From the UHGV virus genome UHGV-0096894: DNA of 18,917 nucleotides; one strand, written 5' to 3'. The DNA is from a virus. The notes below the pieces were generated by a model that saw nothing but the letters and a program-made list of their open reading frames with translations, was not told where the DNA came from and ran no database searches. Positions within the stretch are counted from its first letter, which is position 1, and each line of letters starts with the position of its first letter. This document shows, piece by piece, positions 3,366-13,353 of the stretch. Both the position numbers and the translations under genes were made by a program.

Positions 3366-4421
3366 GTGCGGGTATTGCTTCGACCTGTTCCTGTACCGGA
3401 ACTTGGGCTGGTGGTCCTTAAGCCTGGCCGTGAATCCATGCAGGTATTTCATAACCCTCGAGTGCTGGTAGAGCCGGAACCGAAAAGCATGCGCGGCCTG
3501 CCGTCCGGGATTGTTCCTGCCGTTCGCCAGCCACTGATGGAAGATAAATCATTACTGCCATTTTTCAGCGACGAACGGGTGATTCGCGCTGCCGGCGGTG
3601 CTGGTTCACTGTCTGACTGGCTCCTGCGTCATGTTAAATCCTGCCAGTGGCCTCATGGTGACTATCATCACAGTGAAATCGTCATACATCGTTACTGTAC
3701 CGGCGCGATGGTGTTGTGCTGGCACTGCGACAACCAGCTGCGTGACCAGACATCAGAATCACTTGAACAACTTGCTCATCAAAACCTGGCAGCATGGATG
3801 ATTGACGTCATCCGTCACGCAATGAATGGCACGCAGGAGCGGGAATTATCGCTGGCTGAATTGTACTGCTGGGCTGCTGTAAATGATGTAGTGGATGCCA
3901 TGACCGAAAATATGGCGCGTCGAATCCTGAAGCTTCCGGGTGAAAAAATCTGCTCAGTATACCGCGAGAGCGACATCATACCGGGAGAGCAGACAGCCAT
4001 CAGCATACTGAAGCAGCGCACAAAAAATCTTGCGCCGCTGCCTCACGCCCACCAGCAAAACCCGCCACAGGAAAAGACGGTGGTCAGCATTGCCGTTGAT
4101 CCGGAGTCACCGGCTCAGTATCTCCAGCGCCAGAAACCACAACGGGAAGATATGCCTGTATACACGCGCTGGGTAAAAACGCAGAAATGCATGACGTGCG
4201 GTAATCAGGCAGATGATCCGCATCACATCATTGGTCATGGGCTGGGAGGGATGGGAACAAAGGCTGATGATTTGTTTGTTATTCCGCTGTGCCGTAAATG
4301 TCATAACGAACTGCACGCCGGGGTAAAAGATTTTGAAGAAAAACACGGCAGCCAGCTGTTGTTGCTGATTCGTTTTTTAATGCACGCGAGAAATTCGGGT
4401 GTCCTGAAGTGGAAAGCATGA
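3366..4421 (+). CDS. DUF968-like lambdoid prophage protein with Cys/His-rich (HNH-like) C-terminal region
   Basis: GTG start at 3366 with GGAGG 5 nt upstream. The C-terminus CMTCGNQADDPHHIIGHGLGGMGTKADDLFVIPLCRKCHNELH has the paired Cys plus His pattern I associate with the DUF968/YdfU family of nin-region proteins. Stop abuts the rusA start. Confidence 0.65.
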   Translation: MRVLLRPVPVPELGLVVLKPGRESMQVFHNPRVLVEPEPKSMRGLPSGIVPAVRQPLMEDKSLLPFFSDERVIRAAGGAGSLSDWLLRHVKSCQWPHGDYHHSEIVIHRYCTGAMVLCWHCDNQLRDQTSESLEQLAHQNLAAWMIDVIRHAMNGTQERELSLAELYCWAAVNDVVDAMTENMARRILKLPGEKICSVYRESDIIPGEQTAISILKQRTKNLAPLPHAHQQNPPQEKTVVSIAVDPESPAQYLQRQKPQREDMPVYTRWVKTQKCMTCGNQADDPHHIIGHGLGGMGTKADDLFVIPLCRKCHNELHAGVKDFEEKHGSQLLLLIRFLMHARNSGVLKWKA

Positions 4422-4799
4422 ATGACTGAACGCATAGAATTTGTTTTGCCTTACCCGCCGACGGTGAATACTTACTGGCGACGTCATGGCAATACGTATT
4501 TCATCTCGGAGGCCGGAAAGCGTTATCGCCGTGATGTGGCGCTAATTGTTCGCCAGCAGCGGCTGAAATTAAACCTGTCCGGAAGGCTGGCGATAAAGAT
4601 TATTGCAGAGCCACCGGATAAGCGCCGTCGTGACCTGGACAATATCCTGAAAGCACCACTGGATGCGCTGACGCATGCCGGACTTCTCATAGACGACGAT
4701 CAGTTTGATGAAATCAATATTGTGCGTGGTCTGCCTGTTTGCGGTGGGCGACTGGGTGTGAATATATTCGTAATAAGAGGATGTAATGATGTTGCGTGA
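4422..4799 (+). CDS. rusA: RusA-family Holliday junction resolvase
   Basis: Product [40 protein letters not shown]...[30 protein letters not shown]...GGRLGVNIF carries the RusA landmarks (PP..N.Y, RRRDLDN, DALT.AG, DD.Q, GGRL). ATG immediately follows the upstream stop. Confidence 0.85.
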
Positions 4800-5160
4800 T
4801 ATTCAGCTGGTTATGGAGCGGTGGGGAGCATGGGCAGCAAATAATCATGAAGATGTAACATGGCCCTCGATAGCTGCTGGTTTTAAAGGATTAATCCCGG
4901 CTAAAGTGAAATCACGTCCTCAGTGTTCTGATGATGACGCCATGATAATTTGTGGCTGTATGGCACGATTAAACAAGAATAATCAGTATTTGCACGATTT
5001 GTTGGTGGATTATTACGTAGGTGGAATGACATTTATGGCTCTTGCACGTAAGCATAGATGTTCTGATGGGCTTATTGGTAAAAGACTTTATAAAGCGGAA
5101 GGTATTATTGAAGGAATGCTTATGGCTCTGAATGTCAGGTTAGATATGGATATGCGGTAG
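4786..5160 (+). CDS. Late-gene antiterminator Q (Q21/QuuD-like family)
   Basis: Product [36 protein letters not shown]...[14 protein letters not shown]... matches my recollection of the small phage-21/DLP12 QuuD-type Q proteins. AGAGGA RBS upstream. The position (after rusA, before late genes) fits. Confidence 0.65.
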
Positions 5161-5279: not shown

Positions 5280-5310
5280 CAATATTCATCATTAAATGAA
5301 AGGAGTGTTT

Positions 5311-6129
5311 ATGTGGATTGTGTTAGCACTGTCACTGTCAACTCTCAGTTGGCATAAGGTAGTGGCTTTTTCATTGTTGACGGTGTCTGCTGTCCTGGCT
5401 GTACTTAATGATATTATTGATTGGCCGGTGTTGTTTTTTGTTGCTACAATCGTCTTTTTTATTATTTTGAAGTTCAACTGGAAATATAACGCTTGGGCTA
5501 AATCCATATATGAAGCTGGCATAGTTTTATCAGCCATAGCATTATCTTTCCATTTATGGCCAGGGTTTCACAATCCTGTAGTGCTAAAGTCTGTTACTGT
5601 CGGACCTCAAAGCACTCCCTATACAATGTATTTTAATTTTGATAAAGCGCTGGTGCCATTTTTGTTAGTCCTGTGTACAGCTTCTTTGTTTAAAAAAGAA
5701 GTGAAATCAGAAGTGTCTTTGTGGAAATGGGGGGCTCTGTTGCTCTCTGTTCCTCTTATCCTGTTTTTGGCTGTTTTTTTTGGTGGGTTAAAGCCAGAGA
5801 TTCATTTTCCTGAGTGGTTGCCAGAGTTTATATTGGCTAATTTGTTTTTTGTGTCTCTGGCAGAGGAATCATTATTTAGAGGGTATATTCAATCACGGCT
5901 ATCAGAAGTAACGTCTCCATTGATTGCGTTAATTGTGGCGTCTTTGTTGTTTGGTCTTTTTCACTATTCAGGTGGTGCTTTACTTGTATTATTTGCCACG
6001 TTATCTGGTGTTGTGTATGGATTGTCATGGATGTGGAGTGGGCGCTTGTGGGTGGCAACCCTTTTCCATTTTGGTCTGAATCTGTGTCACTTGTTATTCT
6101 TTACCTATCCATTCTTAAAACATAATTGA
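5311..6129 (+). CDS. CPBP-family (Abi/CAAX-protease-like) intramembrane metalloprotease
   Basis: AAGGAG RBS 6 nt before ATG at 5311 (the track starts at 5296). Polytopic hydrophobic protein with all three CPBP motifs: EESLFR (EExxxR), FGLFH (FxxxH) and HFGLN (HxxxN). Confidence 0.8.
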   Translation: MWIVLALSLSTLSWHKVVAFSLLTVSAVLAVLNDIIDWPVLFFVATIVFFIILKFNWKYNAWAKSIYEAGIVLSAIALSFHLWPGFHNPVVLKSVTVGPQSTPYTMYFNFDKALVPFLLVLCTASLFKKEVKSEVSLWKWGALLLSVPLILFLAVFFGGLKPEIHFPEWLPEFILANLFFVSLAEESLFRGYIQSRLSEVTSPLIALIVASLLFGLFHYSGGALLVLFATLSGVVYGLSWMWSGRLWVATLFHFGLNLCHLLFFTYPFLKHN

Positions 6130-6210
6130 TTTTTTTCTATGGTTTTAAATTTATAACACTGAAAAATAGCAGGATGTGACATTTGCATGAGAAATATGCA
6201 CGGCAAAGCA

Positions 6211-6224
6211 TTTACGTACGTAAA
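6211..6224. promoter_or_regulatory. Perfect 14-bp palindrome TTTACGTACGTAAA, candidate operator
   Basis: Exact reverse-complement symmetry at 6211-6224, flanked by AAGCAT/ATGCTT arms, in the untranslated region downstream of the CPBP gene and about 200 bp upstream of the small winged-helix ORF. Confidence 0.3.
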
Positions 6225-6270
6225 AAATCATGTATGCTTTTAAGAGTGGTTATTTCACCGCATAGCCTGA

Positions 6271-6293
6271 ACCCGCCTCTGAGCGGGTTTTTT
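6271..6293 (+). terminator. Rho-independent terminator
   Basis: Stem acccgc(6271-6276)/gcgggt(6283-6288), loop ctctga, then a 6-T run. Confidence 0.6.
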
Positions 6294-6764: not shown

Positions 6765-7811
6765 ATGGTTAATACTGTAAAAATATCCAGTTGTGAGTTG
6801 ATCAACGCTGATTGCCTGGAATTTATCCAGACCTTACCGGAAAACTCTGTCGATTTGATAGTCACAGACCCGCCATACTTTAAAGTGAAGCCCGAGGGCT
6901 GGGATAACCAGTGGAAGGGTGACGATGATTACCTGAAGTGGCTGGACCAGTGTCTGGCGCAGTTCTGGCGGGTACTGAAGCCCGCCGGAAGTCTTTACCT
7001 GTTCTGTGGGCATCGTCTGGCATCTGATATCGAGATCATGTTGCGTGAACGTTTCAACGTGCTTAACCATATCATCTGGGCGAAGCCGTCCGGACGCTGG
7101 AACGGGTGCAGGAAGGAAAGCCTGAGGGCATATTTCCCGGCAACAGAGCACATACTGTTTGCTGAACATTACCAGGGGCCATATCGGCCAAAAAATGATG
7201 GCTATGTGGCAAAGGGGCGCGAGCTTAAACAGCATGTCATGGCTCCGCTGATTTCTTACTTTCGTGATGCGCGTGAATCACTGGGGATAACGCCGAAACA
7301 GATAGCGGAAGCCACCGGAAAGAAAAACATGGCTTCGCACTGGTTTGGTGCCAGCCAGTGGCAGTTACCGAACGAAGCTGATTACAGAAAGCTGCAGGCG
7401 TTGTTTGCGCGTGTTGCAGCAGAAAAACATCAACGCGGAGAACTGGAAAAGCCACACCACCATCTGGTCAGCACATACAGCGAACTGAACCGGCAATATG
7501 TCAGCCTGCTGGAAGAGTATAAATCTTTGCGGCGTTATTTTTCCGTATCGGCAGCCGTTCCTTATACGGATGTCTGGACGCACAAACCTGTGCTGTATTA
7601 TCCGGGTAAACATCCGTGTGAGAAGCCAGCAGATATGTTGCGGCAGATAATTACAGCCAGCAGTCGTCCGGGGGAACTGGTTGCAGACTTTTTTATGGGA
7701 TCGGGGGCGACTATAAAGGCTGCGCTCTCTCTGGAACGTAGAGCTATTGGTGTAGAGCTGGAAACGGACAGGTTTAATCAAACGTTTGATGAAATAAGAA
7801 ACAATGGTTAG
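6765..7811 (+). CDS. Orphan DNA amino-methyltransferase (N6-adenine or N4-cytosine, beta-class)
   Basis: Catalytic motif IV DPPY (LIVTDPPYF) near the N-terminus and AdoMet motif I FxGxG (DFFMGSGAT) near the C-terminus, the circularly permuted order of beta-class amino-MTases. No restriction endonuclease gene adjacent. Confidence 0.85.
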   Translation: MVNTVKISSCELINADCLEFIQTLPENSVDLIVTDPPYFKVKPEGWDNQWKGDDDYLKWLDQCLAQFWRVLKPAGSLYLFCGHRLASDIEIMLRERFNVLNHIIWAKPSGRWNGCRKESLRAYFPATEHILFAEHYQGPYRPKNDGYVAKGRELKQHVMAPLISYFRDARESLGITPKQIAEATGKKNMASHWFGASQWQLPNEADYRKLQALFARVAAEKHQRGELEKPHHHLVSTYSELNRQYVSLLEEYKSLRRYFSVSAAVPYTDVWTHKPVLYYPGKHPCEKPADMLRQIITASSRPGELVADFFMGSGATIKAALSLERRAIGVELETDRFNQTFDEIRNNG

Positions 7812-7977: not shown

Positions 7978-8053
<76 letters not shown>

Positions 8054-8056
8054 TAT

Positions 8057-8131
<75 letters not shown>

Positions 8132-8485
8132 TCATTATTCTGGCAACACGAATTATACAGCACTGGCGTGTTTTTTACGTGGGGGCAGGTTGTTTTAAGA
8201 CATCTTTGGTCCTCAGGCTATGGTTTGAGGTCGGTTATAGCCTCAGTGCTGATTTTTTACAACAATGGAATGGTGCATTATCGGTGGAGATTTCGTATTT
8301 CCTGGCAGGGCTGATGATGCACTATCCCGGTGTTGTAAAAACACTACAGAGGTGTTCCTCAGTGCGAGGGTGGTTTAAAGAGTCGGTTTAGCGGGAAACC
8401 ACAGTATCCTTGTGGGGCTGGATGCTTCGGGTGGCACCCGACACTTCTGAATACAATTAAATCATGCGTTTTTATATGCCATTAA

Positions 8486-8509
8486 CCGCCGCTCCAGGCG
8501 GTTTTTTTT
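8486..8509 (+). terminator. Rho-independent terminator
   Basis: Stem ccgcc(8486-8490)/ggcgg(8497-8501), loop gctcca, followed by an 8-T run (8502-8509). Confidence 0.55.
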
Positions 8510-9129
8510 ATTCAAAGTTTGGGGTTACAAGTGCTCGCTTCCACTACTTTGGTTTTTACAATTATAGTTTTTGGGAGAATCTTCATGGGGTGTGCTTCAT
8601 CCTTTGCAATTCGCTGCTCCTGGTGTATGAGACAATGAAGTCCATGCGGTAACGAAGGTCGGATATCTGCTCGGTTTTATTCTGGTAATTTGGGGCCTTC
8701 GCTTTTTACGGATGCGGGCAGCACAAGGTTATTGGGGCGACGGCCATCATTGTTGCATTTGCAGGAGTTATTCTGAGTCCGACAAGAATGTGCTGTTGAG
8801 TGCACTGCTGGCTGAAAGAAACTGCCACCTGAAGAATGGTGAACTTATTTAGTAGGGGATCCTGGATGAAAGTGAACGGGATGATAACTTCGAAATTAGT
8901 CCACTGAGGAATGCCTTATACAAGAGATCATGGATAACCCTCGGACATTTACAGGAAGCAAACGCCACTTACTTCACTACCCCGGAGAAGTGGGGCCTGC
9001 CAATATGACAGATAACAAAATCTGAAAATGAGTCTCTCCAGTTGAGAAATATACGATGAAGGAGCATTCTGTTCAGCGCAAAGTAATCCGTTTTGTGATG
9101 AATAATCTCGAGAGTCATTTTTCATTCCT

Positions 9130-9158
9130 GCCAGCCTCCCCAGAGCTGGCTTTTTTTT
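9130..9158 (+). terminator. Rho-independent terminator
   Basis: Stem gccagc(9130-9135)/gctggc(9145-9150), 9-nt loop, followed by an 8-T run (9151-9158). Confidence 0.55.
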
Positions 9159-9221
9159 AAGGCCTGTTCCGACGGGCTTTTTTGTATTCGCTCCACGTCC
9201 CATACATATCAAATCTGAATA

Positions 9222-9268
9222 ACACCACACAAAGGCATCTGCGGATGTCTTTGGTGTGGTGTTTTTTT
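9222..9268 (+). terminator. Strong rho-independent terminator immediately upstream of the lysis cassette
   Basis: Long imperfect hairpin ACACCACACAAAG (9222-9234) / CTTTGGTGTGGTGT (9249-9262) with one bulge and a 14-nt loop holding a catc/gatg mini-stem, followed by a 7-T run. A second T-run at 9285-9290 precedes the holin RBS. Confidence 0.6.
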
Positions 9269-9309
9269 GGGTCCGCTGGTGGCCTTTTTTAATTTACAGG
9301 AGAAAAAGT

Positions 9310-9702
9310 ATGTCTGAACCCTTATCCGGTTCCGGCACCGCTGCTGCGCTCGGTGGGGCGACTGTTTTCGGGCTGTTTACCGGAACGGATTTCGGGATTG
9401 TGTTTGGCGCATTTGCGGGGGCGTTGTTTGTTGCAACGATACCGCAGGCGCTTTCAGCATGGCGGGTGGCGGCACATTTTCTTGTGTCATTTATCGTCGG
9501 CGTGCTGGGTGCGCGTTTGCTTTCAGCCTGGGTGGCATCAAAAACTGGTTATGACGGCACATCTGCAGATGCATTGTGTGCGGTGCTGGTATCGCTGGTG
9601 TCGGTAAAGATTATGTCATTCATCCACCAGCAGGATATCGCATCACTGGTGTCTGGCCTGTTCTCGCGCCTGCGGGGCGGAGGAGGCGGCAATGTTAAGT
9701 AA
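9310..9702 (+). CDS. Putative holin (130 aa, 3-4 predicted transmembrane segments)
   Basis: AGGAG RBS 7 nt before ATG at 9310; the track's 9256 start runs through the terminator T-tract and is unlikely. Gly/Ala-rich hydrophobic segments, short charged C-terminus. Sits first in a block that ends with endolysin and spanins. No similarity to lambda S that I can see. Confidence 0.6.
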   Translation: MSEPLSGSGTAAALGGATVFGLFTGTDFGIVFGAFAGALFVATIPQALSAWRVAAHFLVSFIVGVLGARLLSAWVASKTGYDGTSADALCAVLVSLVSVKIMSFIHQQDIASLVSGLFSRLRGGGGGNVK

Positions 9703-9967
9703 CCTTCCCGGATTGCTGAATGTGGCGTTATGCACGGTTATCGTGCTGACGCTCTTTTTTTATCGTCGTCGTGACTCCAGACACAAACCGCTGATGTCAT
9801 GGCTGGCCTGGCTGCTGATGCTGCTGTATGCCTTTGCCCCCCTCAGCTATCTGTGTGGTCGCCCGTTAGCAACGGGCTGGCTGGAGGTGTTTTTTAATCT
9901 GCTGTTCTGCGTGCTGGTGATACGCGCACGCGGGAACGTCACAAGAATCTTTCCATTGTTGAGGTGA
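9692..9967 (+). CDS. Small membrane protein in lysis cassette (possible second holin or antiholin component)
   Basis: ATG at 9692 overlaps the holin stop by 11 nt, with GGAGGAGG RBS upstream. 91 aa with 2-3 hydrophobic helices. Its TGA stop (9965-9967) sits 3 nt before the endolysin ATG. Confidence 0.5.
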   Translation: MLSNLPGLLNVALCTVIVLTLFFYRRRDSRHKPLMSWLAWLLMLLYAFAPLSYLCGRPLATGWLEVFFNLLFCVLVIRARGNVTRIFPLLR

Positions 9968-9969
9968 AT

Positions 9970-10347
9970 ATGTCGGGTAAATTCAGATTCAGCCGCCGGA
10001 GCGAGAAAAATCTGGAGGGTGTCAAACCACAGCTGGTTGCTGTAGTTCGCCGTGCCCTTGAACTGACGGAGGTTGATTTTGGTATTACGGAAGGTCTGCG
10101 CACGAAAGAGCGCCAGAAACAACTGGTTGCGGAAGGAAAAAGTCAGACTATGAACAGCCGTCACCTGACAGGTGATGCAGTGGATGTTGTGGCCTACGTT
10201 GGCAGCCAGGTGTCATGGGACTGGCCTCTGTACGAGAAAATCGCACAGGCATTTAAGCAGGCTGGTGCAGAGCTGGGAACCGCCATCGAATGGGGCGGGG
10301 ACTGGAAAACACTGAAAGACGGACCACATTTCCAGCTGAAGCGCTGA
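9970..10347 (+). CDS. Endolysin, M15-family peptidase (L-alanyl-D-glutamate peptidase type)
   Basis: Product MSGKFRFSRRSEKNLEGV...SRHLTGDAVDVVAY...WGGDW...GPHFQL has the zinc-ligand pattern (H..G.A.D ... H) of VanY/M15 phage endolysins such as T5 Lys. The track starts at GTG 9964; ATG 9970 is preferred. Confidence 0.8.
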   Translation: MSGKFRFSRRSEKNLEGVKPQLVAVVRRALELTEVDFGITEGLRTKERQKQLVAEGKSQTMNSRHLTGDAVDVVAYVGSQVSWDWPLYEKIAQAFKQAGAELGTAIEWGGDWKTLKDGPHFQLKR

Positions 10348-10362
10348 CAGCTGGGGCTGAAT

Positions 10363-10830
10363 ATGAGCAGAGTTACTGTGATTATCTCCCCTCTGGTTTT
10401 CTGCATCATTGTCTGCCTGTCATTGGCTGTTAATCATTACCGTAATAATGCCATTACCTACAAAGCGCAGCGCGACAAAAATGCCGGAGAACTGAAACTG
10501 GCGAACGTGACAATTACTGACATGCATCAGCTCCAGCGTGAGGCTGATGCACTCGATGCTAAATACACGAAGGAGTTAGCTGATGCGAAAGCTGAAAATG
10601 ATGCTCTTCGGCGCAAGCTTGATAATGGTGGCAGGGTGCTCGTCAAAGGAAAATGCCCTGTGCCATCCTCAGCCGAAACCTCCAGCGCCTCCGGCATGGG
10701 CAATGATGCCACCGTCGAACTCTCTCCAGTTGCTGGACGAAACGTTCTCGGTATCCGGGACGAAATTATCCGCGACCAAACAGCACTGAGAACGCTTCAG
10801 GAATACATCAAGACGCAATGCCTGAATTAA
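10363..10830 (+). CDS. Rz-type i-spanin (inner-membrane spanin subunit)
   Basis: N-terminal TM helix ([18 protein letters not shown]), then a long coiled-coil-like periplasmic region ([44 protein letters not shown]). Directly follows the endolysin gene and contains an embedded +1-frame lipoprotein gene. Confidence 0.8.
10583..10789 (+). CDS. Rz1-type o-spanin lipoprotein, embedded in the +1 frame of Rz
   Basis: AAGGAG RBS 5 nt before ATG at 10583. Product [21 protein letters not shown]... has a lipoprotein signal with lipobox VAGC, followed by a Pro-rich segment ([16 protein letters not shown]). Entirely nested within Rz in another frame. Confidence 0.7.
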
Positions 10831-10871
10831 TCCCTCTGTATCAAAAACGAGCTCAATTTGTTGGATAGTGA

Positions 10872-11183
10872 ATGAAAATTTATATTTCCGGGCCAATGAC
10901 GGGATATGAGAACTTTAATCGTGACGCCTTTAATAAAGAGGCAGATCGTTTGTCACGACATGGTCACTCTGTCTTGAATCCAGCCACTTTGCCTAATGGT
11001 CTGACACAACGTGAATACATGGATATTTGCTTTGCAATGCTTCGTTGTGCTGATGCTATTTTGATGCTTCCTGGCTGGAAAGCGTCTGCTGGAGCAACTG
11101 CTGAGTATCATTACGCATACAAGATGGAGATGCCGGTATTCACTACGCTGAATTACCCGCCAGTTTGTTCCTCTGTAGCATAA
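10872..11183 (+). CDS. DUF4406-like protein (nucleoside 2-deoxyribosyltransferase-like fold)
   Basis: MKIYISGPMTGYENFNRDAFNKEADRLSRHGHSVLNPA...CADAILMLPGWKASAGATAE matches the pattern I recall for DUF4406 (KIY.SGPMTG ... NP ... D.I..LPGW..S.GA..E). Confidence 0.65.
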   Translation: MKIYISGPMTGYENFNRDAFNKEADRLSRHGHSVLNPATLPNGLTQREYMDICFAMLRCADAILMLPGWKASAGATAEYHYAYKMEMPVFTTLNYPPVCSSVA

Positions 11184-11528
11184 AATCTCTTTGTTTCTCG
11201 TGTGCGACCGCGGTCGCACGCTAAATTCCGCGCTGCATCGTCGCCGTATTCCCGCATTAACCATGACCGCAGCCCGATGGGGAACTCCTTCTGCGCGAGT
11301 GTGCGGGAATAATCAAAAACGATGCACACCGGGTTTTTACCGCGCTAATGATTCGCGGGTTTATCCCGGTGCGATGGTGGAAGAAACCGGAAGCTGTATT
11401 ACAGAAAGTGCTACTACTGTATCCCGATGCGATGTATGTAATGTGAGTCAGATAATGGCACAGGATGTGGTGATGTGGCAGTCTGGAACACAGGATATAT
11501 TGTCAGAATAAGACCCGTAGGAATAAAA

Positions 11529-11855
11529 ATGAAAAGACGCCTTTTACTACTTTTTCTGTTATCTGTCCTGGCAGTGGGATGCTCGCAGCAAAAAGCTGAT
11601 GAGCCCCGGCAATTAGTGACGGTGTATCCACGATATCCGGAATATGCTGCAGCAAATTATATCAAGGGGCTGGTTGAGGTTAAGTTCGATATTGGTGCTG
11701 ATGGGACTGTGACACGGATCGTTTTTCTCCGCTCAGAGCCTCATAATTTGTTTCGTGATGAAGTGGTGAAGGCCATGGCGAAATGGCGATTTGAAAAGAA
11801 TCGCCCCTGTCAGGGAGTGAAGAGACAATTTATCTTTACGCCGTCACGTCCCTGA
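11529..11855 (+). CDS. Lipoprotein with TonB C-terminal-like domain (108 aa)
   Basis: ATG at 11529 with aggaataaaa upstream (the track starts at 11475). Signal peptide with lipobox LAVGC (MKRRLLLLFLLSVLAVGCSQ). Mature part VYPRYPEYAAANYIKGLVEVKFDIGADGTVTRIVFLRSEPHNLFRDEVVKAMAKWRFE fits the TonB_C pattern (YP..A...G.V.V.F.I..DG.V....V..S.P...F...V..A...WRF). Confidence 0.7.
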   Translation: MKRRLLLLFLLSVLAVGCSQQKADEPRQLVTVYPRYPEYAAANYIKGLVEVKFDIGADGTVTRIVFLRSEPHNLFRDEVVKAMAKWRFEKNRPCQGVKRQFIFTPSRP

Positions 11856-11977
11856 TGCTTCCAGGTAGAGAGGGGCTGTAAGCAGGAGAAAAATGAAAGA
11901 GCCAGCGGTTATATTTTTGTCATGGCTGACGAGGAATGATGGAAGAAGGCGTTGTATGCCACACAACGCCTCACTGT

Positions 11978-12157
11978 TCATTTCTTCTTTTTCTCTGGTG
12001 GAACCCGATGAATAAGAGTTGCACTGGTTTCCGATGAGATGGCGATATACTCGGGCAAAGTATGCTGGCAGTTTTCCAACTGGTCAAAAATACCTGCTCT
12101 CGTCTGTTGCAATGCCTGCAGCATGCGGCGGCAATGCGCCTTGCTTTTACTAACCAT
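11978..12157 (-). CDS. Hypothetical small protein (59 aa)
   Basis: Minus-strand ATG with strong GAGGAAGGAAAG SD directly upstream. Product MVSKSKAHCRRMLQALQQTRAGIFDQLENCQHTLPEYIAISSETSATLIHRVPPEKKKK. It is the C-terminal portion of track ORF 11978..12331, whose N-terminal part overlaps the next ORF in another frame. Confidence 0.3.
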   Translation of the reverse strand: MVSKSKAHCRRMLQALQQTRAGIFDQLENCQHTLPEYIAISSETSATLIHRVPPEKKKK

Positions 12158-12218
12158 CTTTCCTTCCTCTATCAGTCGCTGCGTGAACTCATCATGGAAT
12201 ACCAGGTAAATGCGGATG

Positions 12219-12470
12219 TTATCGGTTTTGGCTACGCAGCATAGTACAAAACGGACAGGTGCATCCCGGGACGGGGGAGGCGTCACATGTCCCTGTGATG
12301 GTTGTTCCGGGTAATGTACTGTGTGGGGCATAAAAATGTCCGATAATTTTACTTTCTACCGCAGTTAGTTGATTCGTTGGTCCTGGTAGCACATTGGGCG
12401 AGGATTTAAATGCCAGGCAACTGAAGGATGATGTCGCAAGGGAGATAGCGAGAATATTTCTGATTTTCAT
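12219..12470 (-). CDS. Hypothetical secreted Cys-rich small protein (83 aa)
   Basis: Minus-strand internal ATG (rc of 12468-12470) of track ORF 12219..12539. Product MKIRNILAISLATSSFSCLAFKSS... has a plausible Sec signal peptide followed by a Cys-containing mature region (CDASPVPGCTCPFC). No recognisable family. Confidence 0.35.
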   Translation of the reverse strand: MKIRNILAISLATSSFSCLAFKSSPNVLPGPTNQLTAVESKIIGHFYAPHSTLPGTTITGTCDASPVPGCTCPFCTMLRSQNR

Positions 12471-12618
12471 TTGATGATGCCTCTGTGTGAAATGACGGTA
12501 AACGACGCACTTGTGCCGGCACATAATAGCAAGCACCATAATAGATCAGATTCGATCCTTGCTGTAAGTGATAATTATTCTCGTTTTCGGGTCCTTTCCG
12601 TCGATCCAACAGGTTACG

Positions 12619-12630
12619 GGGCGGCGACCT
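12619..12630. other. cosN cohesive-end site of lambda-type cos (cosQ upstream, cosB downstream to about 12800)
   Basis: ...CAGGTTACG|GGGCGGCGACCT|CGCGGGTTTTCGC... matches the junction of the lambda right and left ends as I recall them, with the 12-nt cohesive end GGGCGGCGACCT 189 nt before the Nu1 start. cosB contains a 14-bp-arm inverted repeat (12729-12742 / 12768-12781). Confidence 0.7.
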
Positions 12631-12807
12631 CGCGGGTTTTCGCTATTTATGAAAATTTTCCGGTTTAAGGCGTTTCCGTTCTTCTTCGTCATAACTTAAT
12701 GTTTTTATTTAAAATACCCTCTGAAAAGAAAGGAAACGACAGGTGCTGAAAGCGAGCTTTTTGGCCTCTGTCGTTTCCTTTTTCTGTTTTTGTCCGTGGA
12801 ATGAACA

Positions 12808-13327
12808 ATGGAAGTCAACAAAAAGCAGCTGGCTGACATTTTCGGTGCGAGTATCCGTACCATTCAGAACTGGCAGGAACAGGGAATGCCCGTTCTGCGA
12901 GGCGGTGGCAAGGGTAATGAGGTGCTTTATGACTCTGCCGCCGTCATAAAATGGTATGCCGAAAGGGATGCTGAAATTGAGAACGAAAAGCTGCGCCGGG
13001 AGGTTGAAGAACTGCGGCAGGCCAGCGAGACAGATCTCCAGCCAGGGACTATTGAGTACGAACGCCATCGACTTACGCGTGCGCAGGCCGACGCACAGGA
13101 GCTGAAAAATGCCAGAGACTCCGCTGAAGTGGTGGAAACCGCATTCTGTACTTTCGTGCTGTCGCGGATCGCAGGTGAAATTGCCAGTATTCTCGACGGG
13201 ATCCCCCTGTCGGTGCAGCGGCGTTTTCCGGAACTGGAAAACCGACATGTTGATTTCCTGAAACGGGATATCATCAAAGCCATGAACAAAGCAGCCGCGC
13301 TGGATGAACTGATACCGGGGTTGCTGA

Positions 13328-13353
<26 letters not shown>
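12808..13353 (+). CDS. nu1: Terminase small subunit Nu1 (lambda-type)
   Basis: 181 aa product MEVNKKQLADIFGASIRTIQNWQEQGMPVLRGGGKGNEVLYDSAAVIKWYAERDAEIENEKLRREVEELRQ... matches phage lambda Nu1 as I recall it. Sits 189 nt from cosN and overlaps A by 26 nt, as in lambda. Confidence 0.95.

Follow-up and report, generated by a model that had tools for sequence, protein, structure and literature searches.

The closest studied phage enzyme to the proteins of the DUF4406 family is DmtZ (2026) from Gordonia phage Ghobes and from Arthrobacter phage Wayne, which has the nucleoside 2-deoxyribosyltransferase (NDT) fold, acts both as a hydrolase of deoxyadenosine monophosphate (dAMP) and as a deoxyribose-5-phosphate transferase, and hydrolyses the dAMP made by DutZ, to which it is fused in phage Wayne (PMC12884076). 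In human DNPH1/Rcl (O43598; PDB 4P5E/8QHQ), a 2′-deoxynucleoside 5′-phosphate N-hydrolase and eukaryotic pool sanitiser, the catalytic residues are Tyr24, Asp80 and Glu104, and the 5′-phosphate is bound through the amides of residues 29-31 and Gly100, through Ser98 and, from the other subunit, through Ser128 (PMC10483697). The N-glycosidases of cytidine monophosphate (CMP) or hydroxymethyl-CMP, MilB, BcmB and BlsM, of about 150-160 aa, are ribonucleotide-specific and belong to antibiotic biosynthesis clusters. Here, we analysed the DUF4406 gene at positions 10872-11183 (+ strand) of UHGV virus genome UHGV-0096894, presented as a stretch of 18,917 nucleotides (the window) that is the late region of a lambdoid prophage. 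We propose that its product is a (deoxy)nucleoside 5′-monophosphate N-glycosidase, possibly with transfer activity, and put the probability of this reading at roughly one half, because the family has partners that make deoxynucleoside monophosphates (dNMPs), DmtZ provides a precedent, and the product carries a Ser/Gly phosphate motif.

The DUF4406 gene and the fold of its product

The gene runs from ATG to TAA (103 codons plus stop). Its product matched Pfam DUF4406 (PF14359) with E=5e-34 and a score of 117 bits, the cut-off being 22 (residues 1-90 over positions 1-90 of the 91-position model), and it matched phrog_355, labelled 'nucleoside 2-deoxyribosyltransferase', at 8.8e-45. The secondary Pfam matches, to DUF1937 and Nuc_deoxyrib_tr, were weak and sub-threshold; the PF05014 score fell below the gathering threshold (17.3 bits vs 28.8, E=0.0055), which Tweety19 gp28, a remote DUF4406 member, does pass with 29.2 bits. 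NCBIfam returned zero matches. Comparison with relatives of 75-87% identity gave nonsynonymous rates (dN) of 0.06-0.12 and synonymous rates (dS) that were saturated or above 1.5, so that dN/dS was at most about 0.06, and the gene is therefore coding and under strong purifying selection. An antisense open reading frame (ORF) of the same length (10953-11264) lacks such family matches. The family motif G-W-x-x-S-x-G-A-x-x-E is present in the product as Trp69, Ser72, Gly74, Ala75 and Glu78, residues with 92-100% conservation among 253 family members and no variation in ten members with identities as low as 30%. The locus thus holds a real, full-length and strongly conserved DUF4406 gene, already catalogued in RefSeq as 'DUF4406 domain-containing protein', with N15 gp57 as a close relative.

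The AlphaFold2 model, made with 47 homologues, reached a predicted local distance difference test score (pLDDT) of 94 and a predicted template modelling score (pTM) of 0.87. It contains three helices and four strands (residues 2-6, 33-35, 62-65 and 89-91), with the end of the conserved domain near residue 92. Among the top 50 PDB matches of this model in Foldseek, almost all were NDT, MilB, BcmB or DNPH1; the best ones were NDTs, MilB was the second-best structural match, and the NDT family outranked TIR proteins in both structure searches. As modelled, the product has an NDT-like fold of a minimal NDT/DNPH1 type. Both the family assignment and the NDT-like fold, which the original prediction had read from the DNA alone, were thereby confirmed. 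The product is a bona fide PF14359 member and belongs to the NDT/DrHyd superfamily by fold; judged by its profile scores, it does not belong to PF05014, DNPH1 or DmtZ at the level of sequence, and it shares no sequence-level similarity with MilB, BcmB or BlsM.

Active-site residues and predicted chemistry

Active-site residues were mapped by aligning a profile of the 253 members to human DNPH1 with hhalign (E=0.0046), after the sequences of DNPH1 and L. leichmannii NDT (LlNDT) had been verified against PDB. In this alignment, Tyr4 pairs with DNPH1 Tyr24, Met9-Gly11 with Ile29-Gly31, Cys53 with Asp80 (the third triad residue), Ser72 and Gly74 with the 5′-phosphate binders Ser98 and Gly100, and Glu78 with the nucleophile Glu104. 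All the same-subunit phosphate binders of DNPH1 are aligned in the DUF4406 product, namely with Ser72, Gly74 and residues 9-11. Of the Tyr - Asp/Asn - Glu triad of NDT/DrHyd enzymes, Tyr4 and Glu78 align, and the middle position is taken by Cys53. Furthermore, HMMER aligned Glu78 to the Glu of the GTAFELGYA motif of Leishmania NDT. A shallow alignment, A1, run in hhalign against DNPH1 and LlNDT gave partial or spurious results and was discarded, and the 253-sequence profile gave no usable LlNDT alignment; the mapping was therefore drawn from the DNPH1 and DmtZ alignments and the HMMER alignment with the Leishmania enzyme.

Conservation across the 253 members follows this map. Ser72 and Phe20 are invariant, Pro37 is kept in 99.6%, Tyr49 and Gly74 in 99% each and Glu78 in 98%, and position 4 is Tyr in 89% and Phe in a further 8%; these residues persist in members of as little as 30% identity. 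Position 53 is Cys in 75% and Asp in 9.5% of the family, and the Asp found in actinophage members supports the register of the DNPH1 alignment. The original prediction had made its enzyme depend on conserved catalytic residues, and these are present: conservation is 89-100% for the nucleophile Glu, its Tyr partner and the Ser-x-Gly that binds phosphate.

The residues next to the nucleophile also bear on the substrate. The nucleoside-specific LlNDT has Asp at the position of Ser72 (Asp92, six residues before Glu98), a position that serves in binding the 5′-hydroxyl. The Asp/Asn that binds the 5′-OH in transferases is lacking in the hydrolases and in DmtZ (PMC12884076), and the DUF4406 equivalent of this residue of PF05014 enzymes is the invariant Ser72. 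Pro37, past strand 2, aligns with DmtZ Pro57, and a water-excluding proline is conserved in transferases and the bifunctional DmtZ (PMC12884076). This 'transferase' proline is present in the DUF4406 product and not in hydrolases such as DNPH1. The enzyme had been expected to act on deoxynucleosides or deoxynucleotides; of these two, the residue pattern favours nucleotides, in the form of nucleoside 5′-monophosphates, over deoxynucleosides.

The partners of the family point in the same direction. DUF4406 comprises 10,816 cluster representatives at 50% identity (single-sequence search) and is found in 559 deposited phage genomes, including N15, phiKO2, PY54 and D6. Relatives of 57-67% identity lie directly past replication genes (O/DnaB, or DnaC-like with DUF1627/DUF977), usually with a 4-nt overlap, and in actinophages and vibriophages the gene lies among those for exonuclease, sliding clamp, RusA, dNMP kinase and pyrophosphatase. 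Because distant relatives sit in replication and nucleotide-metabolism modules, the family is primarily a replication/nucleotide-metabolism accessory, and the lineage studied here has relocated to the lysis cassette, at its end. In Mycobacterium phage Redno2, gp158 joins DUF4406 to a MazG-like PRA-PH domain, and phrog_12019 is a family of such fusions; the viral structure library BFVD holds many DUF4406-like phage proteins, several of them fused, some to a dATP/dGTP diphosphohydrolase domain. A PF18909 protein adjoins the DUF4406 gene in one lineage, and a pyrophosphatase, dNMP kinase or nucleoside triphosphate pyrophosphatase (NTP-PPase) does so in Chelms, Tweety19 and Vibrio phage 1.087.A. 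The MazG-like, dATP/dGTP diphosphohydrolase and PF18909 partners make dNMPs from deoxynucleoside triphosphates (dNTPs). A Pfam scan of 49 longer members found a helix-turn-helix (HTH) domain, DUF551, a ClpX zinc finger and MqsA once each, most extensions matching no family. Besides 'nucleoside 2-deoxyribosyltransferase', which is another name in use for DUF4406 relatives, the names 'deoxycytidylate deaminase' or 'MazG-like pyrophosphatase' are attached to Shambre1 gp62, Kuleana gp54, LESphi3 P31_11 and Tweety19 gp28; in the misnamed records tested, Pfam detected DUF4406 alone, with or without a sub-threshold NDT match, and these two names on DUF4406-only proteins appear to be propagated errors.

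On this basis we envisage a small cytoplasmic enzyme of the NDT/DNPH1 (DrHyd) superfamily that would act on the N-glycosidic bond, a scheme whose chemistry, monophosphate preference, expression timing and physiological role we infer throughout. Glu78, placed by Tyr4, would attack C1′, releasing the base and leaving a covalent (deoxy)ribosyl-5-phosphate-enzyme intermediate, while the hydroxyl of Ser72, the amide of Gly74 and the Gly7-Pro-Met-Thr-Gly11 loop backbone would grip the 5′-phosphate. Water would resolve the intermediate to give base and (d)ribose-5-phosphate; alternatively, a second base might resolve it, as in phage DmtZ, and the retention of the 'transferase' proline, Pro37, across the family makes such base transfer conceivable. 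The gene would be transcribed together with the lysis genes, from a Q-dependent late promoter, and the enzyme would act late in lytic growth, trimming or sanitising the nucleotide pool, downstream of dNTP pyrophosphatases where these are present. If this is true, DUF4406 proteins would be minimal, 90-residue (deoxy)nucleotide N-glycosidases or phosphodeoxyribosyl transferases whose annotations need correcting, the family would represent a widespread added step in the nucleotide-pool control of phages with ordinary DNA, and nucleotide-analogue biocatalysis would gain a scaffold of very small size. Among uncharacterised phage families DUF4406 ranks with the larger ones, and the prediction gives a precise and cheap biochemical test.

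Comparison with DmtZ and DNPH1 brings out both likeness and difference. Like DmtZ, the DUF4406 product has a Thr/Ser-x-Gly-x-x-x-Glu motif, an aligned Tyr, an aligned Pro-Ala past strand 2 and a third triad residue other than Asp; both are coupled, sometimes by fusion, to a dNTP pyrophosphatase, a coupling that is functional in DmtZ and seen in fusions and neighbours in DUF4406. DmtZ differs in its length of 161 aa, its five strands and its lid residue Trp124 from the second subunit, and it has no Pfam model; hhalign E-values of 0.03-0.06 and a family hidden Markov model (HMM) score of 1.6 bits place the DUF4406 product outside the DmtZ clade. The context of DmtZ is the biosynthesis of 2-aminoadenine (Z) genomes, next to PurZ0, whereas none of the Z-genome genes PurZ, DutZ, DatZ and DpoZ was found among the scanned window genes or the sampled lambdoid/N15-like neighbourhoods. 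DNPH1 has no significant sequence similarity to the product, carries Asp80 where the latter has Cys53, is about 50 residues longer and works as a pool sanitiser in eukaryotes, whereas the DUF4406 gene lies in a phage late operon.

A number of observations weigh against the monophosphate N-glycosidase reading. The product lacks the five-stranded sheet, together with the C-terminal segment that completes the site of the neighbouring subunit in NDT/DrHyd enzymes; its domain stops past strand 4, leaving no counterpart of the adjacent-subunit residues Ser128′-Met130′ of DNPH1 or of Asn123 and the C-terminal carboxylate of NDT. Without this C-terminal half the active site would, as modelled, be less enclosed and could accept a ligand that is bigger or of another kind. 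This clade also has Cys in place of the triad Asp. TIR NADases, too, have a Ser six residues before the catalytic Glu, so this spacing is not unique to phosphate binding. The likeness to known enzymes is at the level of fold and motif, the family HMM scoring about 0 bits on DNPH1 (-0.4), NDT and DmtZ (1.6); pairwise profile E-values for DNPH1 and DmtZ were weak (0.005-0.06), and phmmer with the product against all PDB sequences gave zero matches at E<=10. A profile of close homologues produced marginal NDT matches in PDB (E=0.11), and no solved DUF4406 structure was found. Moreover, residue geometry was taken from alignments, and the promoter and terminator scans were consensus-only and are weak evidence on expression timing. 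The function had been described at the outset as not established, and this still holds: the literature searched contained no paper characterising DUF4406/PF14359, no functional study of N15 gp57 and no member with biochemical data.

Genomic setting and competing explanations

The DUF4406 gene lies 41 bp past Rz/Rz1 and about 1.4 kb ahead of cos. The Rz i-spanin gene (10363-10830, +) matched Phage_lysis at E=5e-28 and phrog_13 at E=8e-69, with Rz1 (10583-10789, +) embedded in it, and alignment with the right-hand end of the phage 21 genome placed cos near 12618. Phage 21 and PhiR47_2 carry bor here instead, on the opposite strand. The original description had the gene in the bor slot, with the spanins on one side and cos on the other, and this is correct. 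Blastn showed that similarity of phage 21 and PhiR47_2 to the window stops over 10611-11229 and returns at 99% from 11230, and that 10795-11367 is common to the window and other DUF4406-bearing E. coli prophages or linear plasmid-prophages at 97% (also by alignment). These two boundaries define an exchangeable cassette of about 435 bp (10795-11229, +), bounded by the Rz end and a conserved junction segment, which is made up of the final ~35 bp of Rz, then 41 bp of spacer, the gene, and a further 46 bp that include a hairpin, and which is absent from phage 21 and PhiR47_2. The junction segment (11230-11367, +), at which phage 21 similarity resumes, is non-coding or contains a small ORF. It occurs twice in other DUF4406 prophages (L003-L005, at about 4359-4496 and 6143-6280) as a 138-bp direct repeat around a 1.65-kb insert with two hypothetical genes, and is likely a homologous-recombination linker for cargo swapping in the Rz-cos region.

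The gene is carried by 38 of 5,426 complete E. coli genomes, none of which has the exact gene combination of the window; the usual arrangement in this species is Rz-iss/bor-TonB_C-Nu1. It was swapped into the bor/iss slot by recombination and is an ordinary catalogued accessory gene in the window. Lambda bor and E. coli iss occupy the same Rz-cos slot and are likewise exchanged by recombination at shared flanks. Lambda bor is expressed in lysogens; it is an outer-membrane lipoprotein gene on the opposite strand with an annotated ribosome-binding site of its own, whereas the DUF4406 gene encodes a cytoplasmic enzyme on the late-operon strand. Orthologue-level relatives are found in N15 (gp57, 83% identity), phiKO2 (gp58, 85%) and PY54 (67%), all placed past lysis/spanin genes near the right genome end before cos. 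N15 gp57 is positioned alike, past a DUF2514 spanin and gp56, and is overlapped by a C5-cytosine methyltransferase gene, whereas the window gene stands alone and is followed by a TonB_C lipoprotein gene.

Sequence features around the gene suggest how it may be transcribed. A weak Shine-Dalgarno-like GGATAG (10863-10868, +), read from the sequence, lies 3 bases (10869-10871) before the ATG and is invariant in the five aligned cassettes, which makes it a candidate ribosome-binding element. Consensus scans of the window called no + strand promoter-like sites at 8072-12686 and no terminator-like sites at 9514-12326, i.e. from the holins to 12326. A GC-rich hairpin (11200-11221, +) with a 9-bp stem and a 4-nt loop begins 17 nt past the stop codon (RNA fold -18.9 kcal/mol, z=-2.0); its stem is kept in the four other cassettes with one or two substitutions, the exact 18-nt palindrome being confined to the window. 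It was rejected as a canonical intrinsic terminator, since it has no U-tract and was not called by the terminator scan. Relatives of at least 69% identity always lie behind spanin genes, often with gaps of -4 to +8 nt that leave no room for a promoter of their own, and at least three unrelated spanin types precede the close relatives (Rz/Rz1, DUF2514 and a two-gene i/o-spanin pair). Layout and scans together predict that the DUF4406 gene rides the Q-dependent late transcript with the lysis genes. Its late-operon strand, its place 41 bp past Rz, the absence of promoter- or terminator-like sites and the spanin overlap in relatives argue for a late lytic gene and not for a bor-like cassette, and the gene probably encodes a nucleotide-pool enzyme expressed late, not a defence function of the lysogen. 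A lysis-related role, considered because close relatives always follow spanins, was rejected, since neither a signal nor a membrane segment is present in the protein, and since the relatives of 57-67% identity come after replication genes instead.

In the strict sense of a cassette expressed from the prophage, the earlier description of the gene as a moron is not supported. Its presence or absence between conserved genes, where it replaces bor, and its deviant GC content (0.43 vs 0.50-0.54 for the lysis genes) are those of a swapped cassette; a promoter and terminator of its own were not found by the consensus scans, which are weak evidence on this point, and the late-operon strand and the spanin overlap in relatives do not suit the term. 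A moron expressed in the lysogen could protect the host by depleting a nucleotide or by destroying a modified one that a superinfecting phage needs, such as the hydroxymethyl-dCMP of T-even phages. The bor/iss slot, a GC content under that of the flanking genes, the structural match to MilB, which hydrolyses hydroxymethyl-CMP, and the NDT-like effector used in Retron-Eco1 defence would suit this role. We regard it as quite unlikely, given that orientation and spacing are those of the late operon, that no promoter of its own was detected, that early replication modules house most homologues, some of these modules being from lytically propagated phages, and that no partner or regulator restraining a toxic depleting enzyme is evident. 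The defence by depletion suggested in the original prediction also found no backing in PADLOC-DB v2, where the product matches no defence-system protein model (E<=1), or in the distribution of the family, which is widespread in phage replication and nucleotide-metabolism modules. Another explanation would keep the gene in counter-defence, as a TIR-like glycosidase or a non-catalytic binder of NAD+, ADP-ribose-derived or other signalling nucleotides, directed against Thoeris-like, retron or other nucleotide-signalling immunity. Its fold neighbours, its open site and the TIR-like distance from Ser to Glu fit this idea, which is nevertheless unlikely: fusions and neighbours indicate dNTP/dNMP metabolism and replication rather than NAD pathways and lend it no contextual support, and NDT-family matches stand above TIR in both structure searches. 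Nor is the family listed among the viral NAD-network domains of a published survey (PMC9503650).

Two further explanations keep the product within nucleotide metabolism. A classical NDT would swap bases between free deoxynucleosides for salvage, as the phage-record names and the phrog_355 label imply; the top Foldseek matches and the alignment of the near-invariant Pro37 with the transferase proline agree with it, and a metagenomic phage NDT (PF05014) showed dA-preferring transfer. The sub-threshold PF05014 score, the invariant Ser in place of the 5′-OH-binding Asp of NDTs, the absence of the Asn123/C-terminal carboxylate part and fusion partners that yield dNMPs instead of nucleosides make this improbable. 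The product might, alternatively, be an accessory to phage DNA methyltransferases that clears methylated dNMPs (m6-dAMP, 5-methyl-dCMP) or S-adenosylhomocysteine. The C5-cytosine methylase gene overlapping N15 gp57 is gp58 (locus L095, 3501-4809), a C5 methylase follows the DUF4406 gene in four other loci (L015, L016, L018 and L022), and a Dam-type/site-specific methylase overlaps it upstream in Vibrio phage 1.087.A and LESphi3-type Pseudomonas phages (gap -4 in 8 loci). Of 211 loci, 20 have a methylase at +/-1. Among 142 non-redundant neighbour clusters, methylases account for 7 and are the largest class with a functional annotation; an N6/N4 DNA methylase lies in the same late operon in the window (6765-7811) and in linear plasmids, and m6-dAMP has been reported as a danger signal for a defence system. 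With the seeds used, this adjacency is confined to about 10% of the loci and 4 of 41 lineages. Phylogenetic redundancy among the loci, and the frequency of methylases in the same accessory regions, keep the enrichment from being established; the methylases fall into three different classes, and no biochemical link is known. We treat the adjacency as a lead and find an accessory role in methylation quite unlikely. Its special case, in which DUF4406 enzymes destroy methylated or non-canonical dNMPs and thereby silence a danger signal sensed by, e.g., the PUA-Calcineurin-HAD system (2026), would explain the repeated translational coupling to three phage DNA methyltransferase classes and seems highly improbable to us. 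The loci with methylase-adjacent DUF4406 genes include L006 (2940-3779) and L009 (2500-4028); across such loci the classes are C5-cytosine, N6/N4 and Dam-like.

Other genes of the window

Upstream of the lysis genes, the antiterminator gene Q (4786-5160) is preceded by DUF968 and RusA genes and directly followed by the gene of an Rce1-like CAAX-protease (Abi-type) membrane protein (5296-6129, +), which occupies the position where Stx phages carry toxin genes and may be abortive-infection or immunity-type cargo. Between the late-region methylase and the holins lie tRNA-Thr(TGT) and tRNA-Gly(TCC) (7978-8131, +), the phage 21 equivalent of this pair being tRNA-Asn and tRNA-Thr. Tandem holin-family genes, Phage_holin_8 and then a Phage_holin_3_7 with three transmembrane segments (9310-9967, +), precede an M15 peptidase endolysin gene. 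The lysis cassettes of phage 21 and of other DUF4406 prophages differ from that of the window, the lysis module being heavily mosaic.

Downstream of the DUF4406 gene, the TonB_C gene (11529-11855, +; Pfam TonB_C E=7e-13) encodes a 108-aa lipoprotein with the signal MKRRLLLLFLLSVLAVGC and a TonB C-terminal domain. It is conserved beside bor/iss, both in phage 21 and across thousands of prophages of E. coli, and the PHROGs label 'Rz-like spanin' for its family looks mis-annotated. The secreted TonB C-domain could act as a TonB-box decoy that blocks TonB-dependent phages or colicins. Between this gene and cos, a 117-aa ORF on the opposite strand (11978-12331, -) has no Pfam match, is annotated as hypothetical in PhiR47_2, and may be another lysogen-expressed cargo gene. 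Past cos follow Nu1 (12808-13353, E=4e-101) and the large terminase gene. In the early region (1378-2230, +), an ImmA/IrrE-style regulator pair consists of an HTH (XRE-type) gene and, after it, a gene with an M78/IrrE-like peptidase domain.

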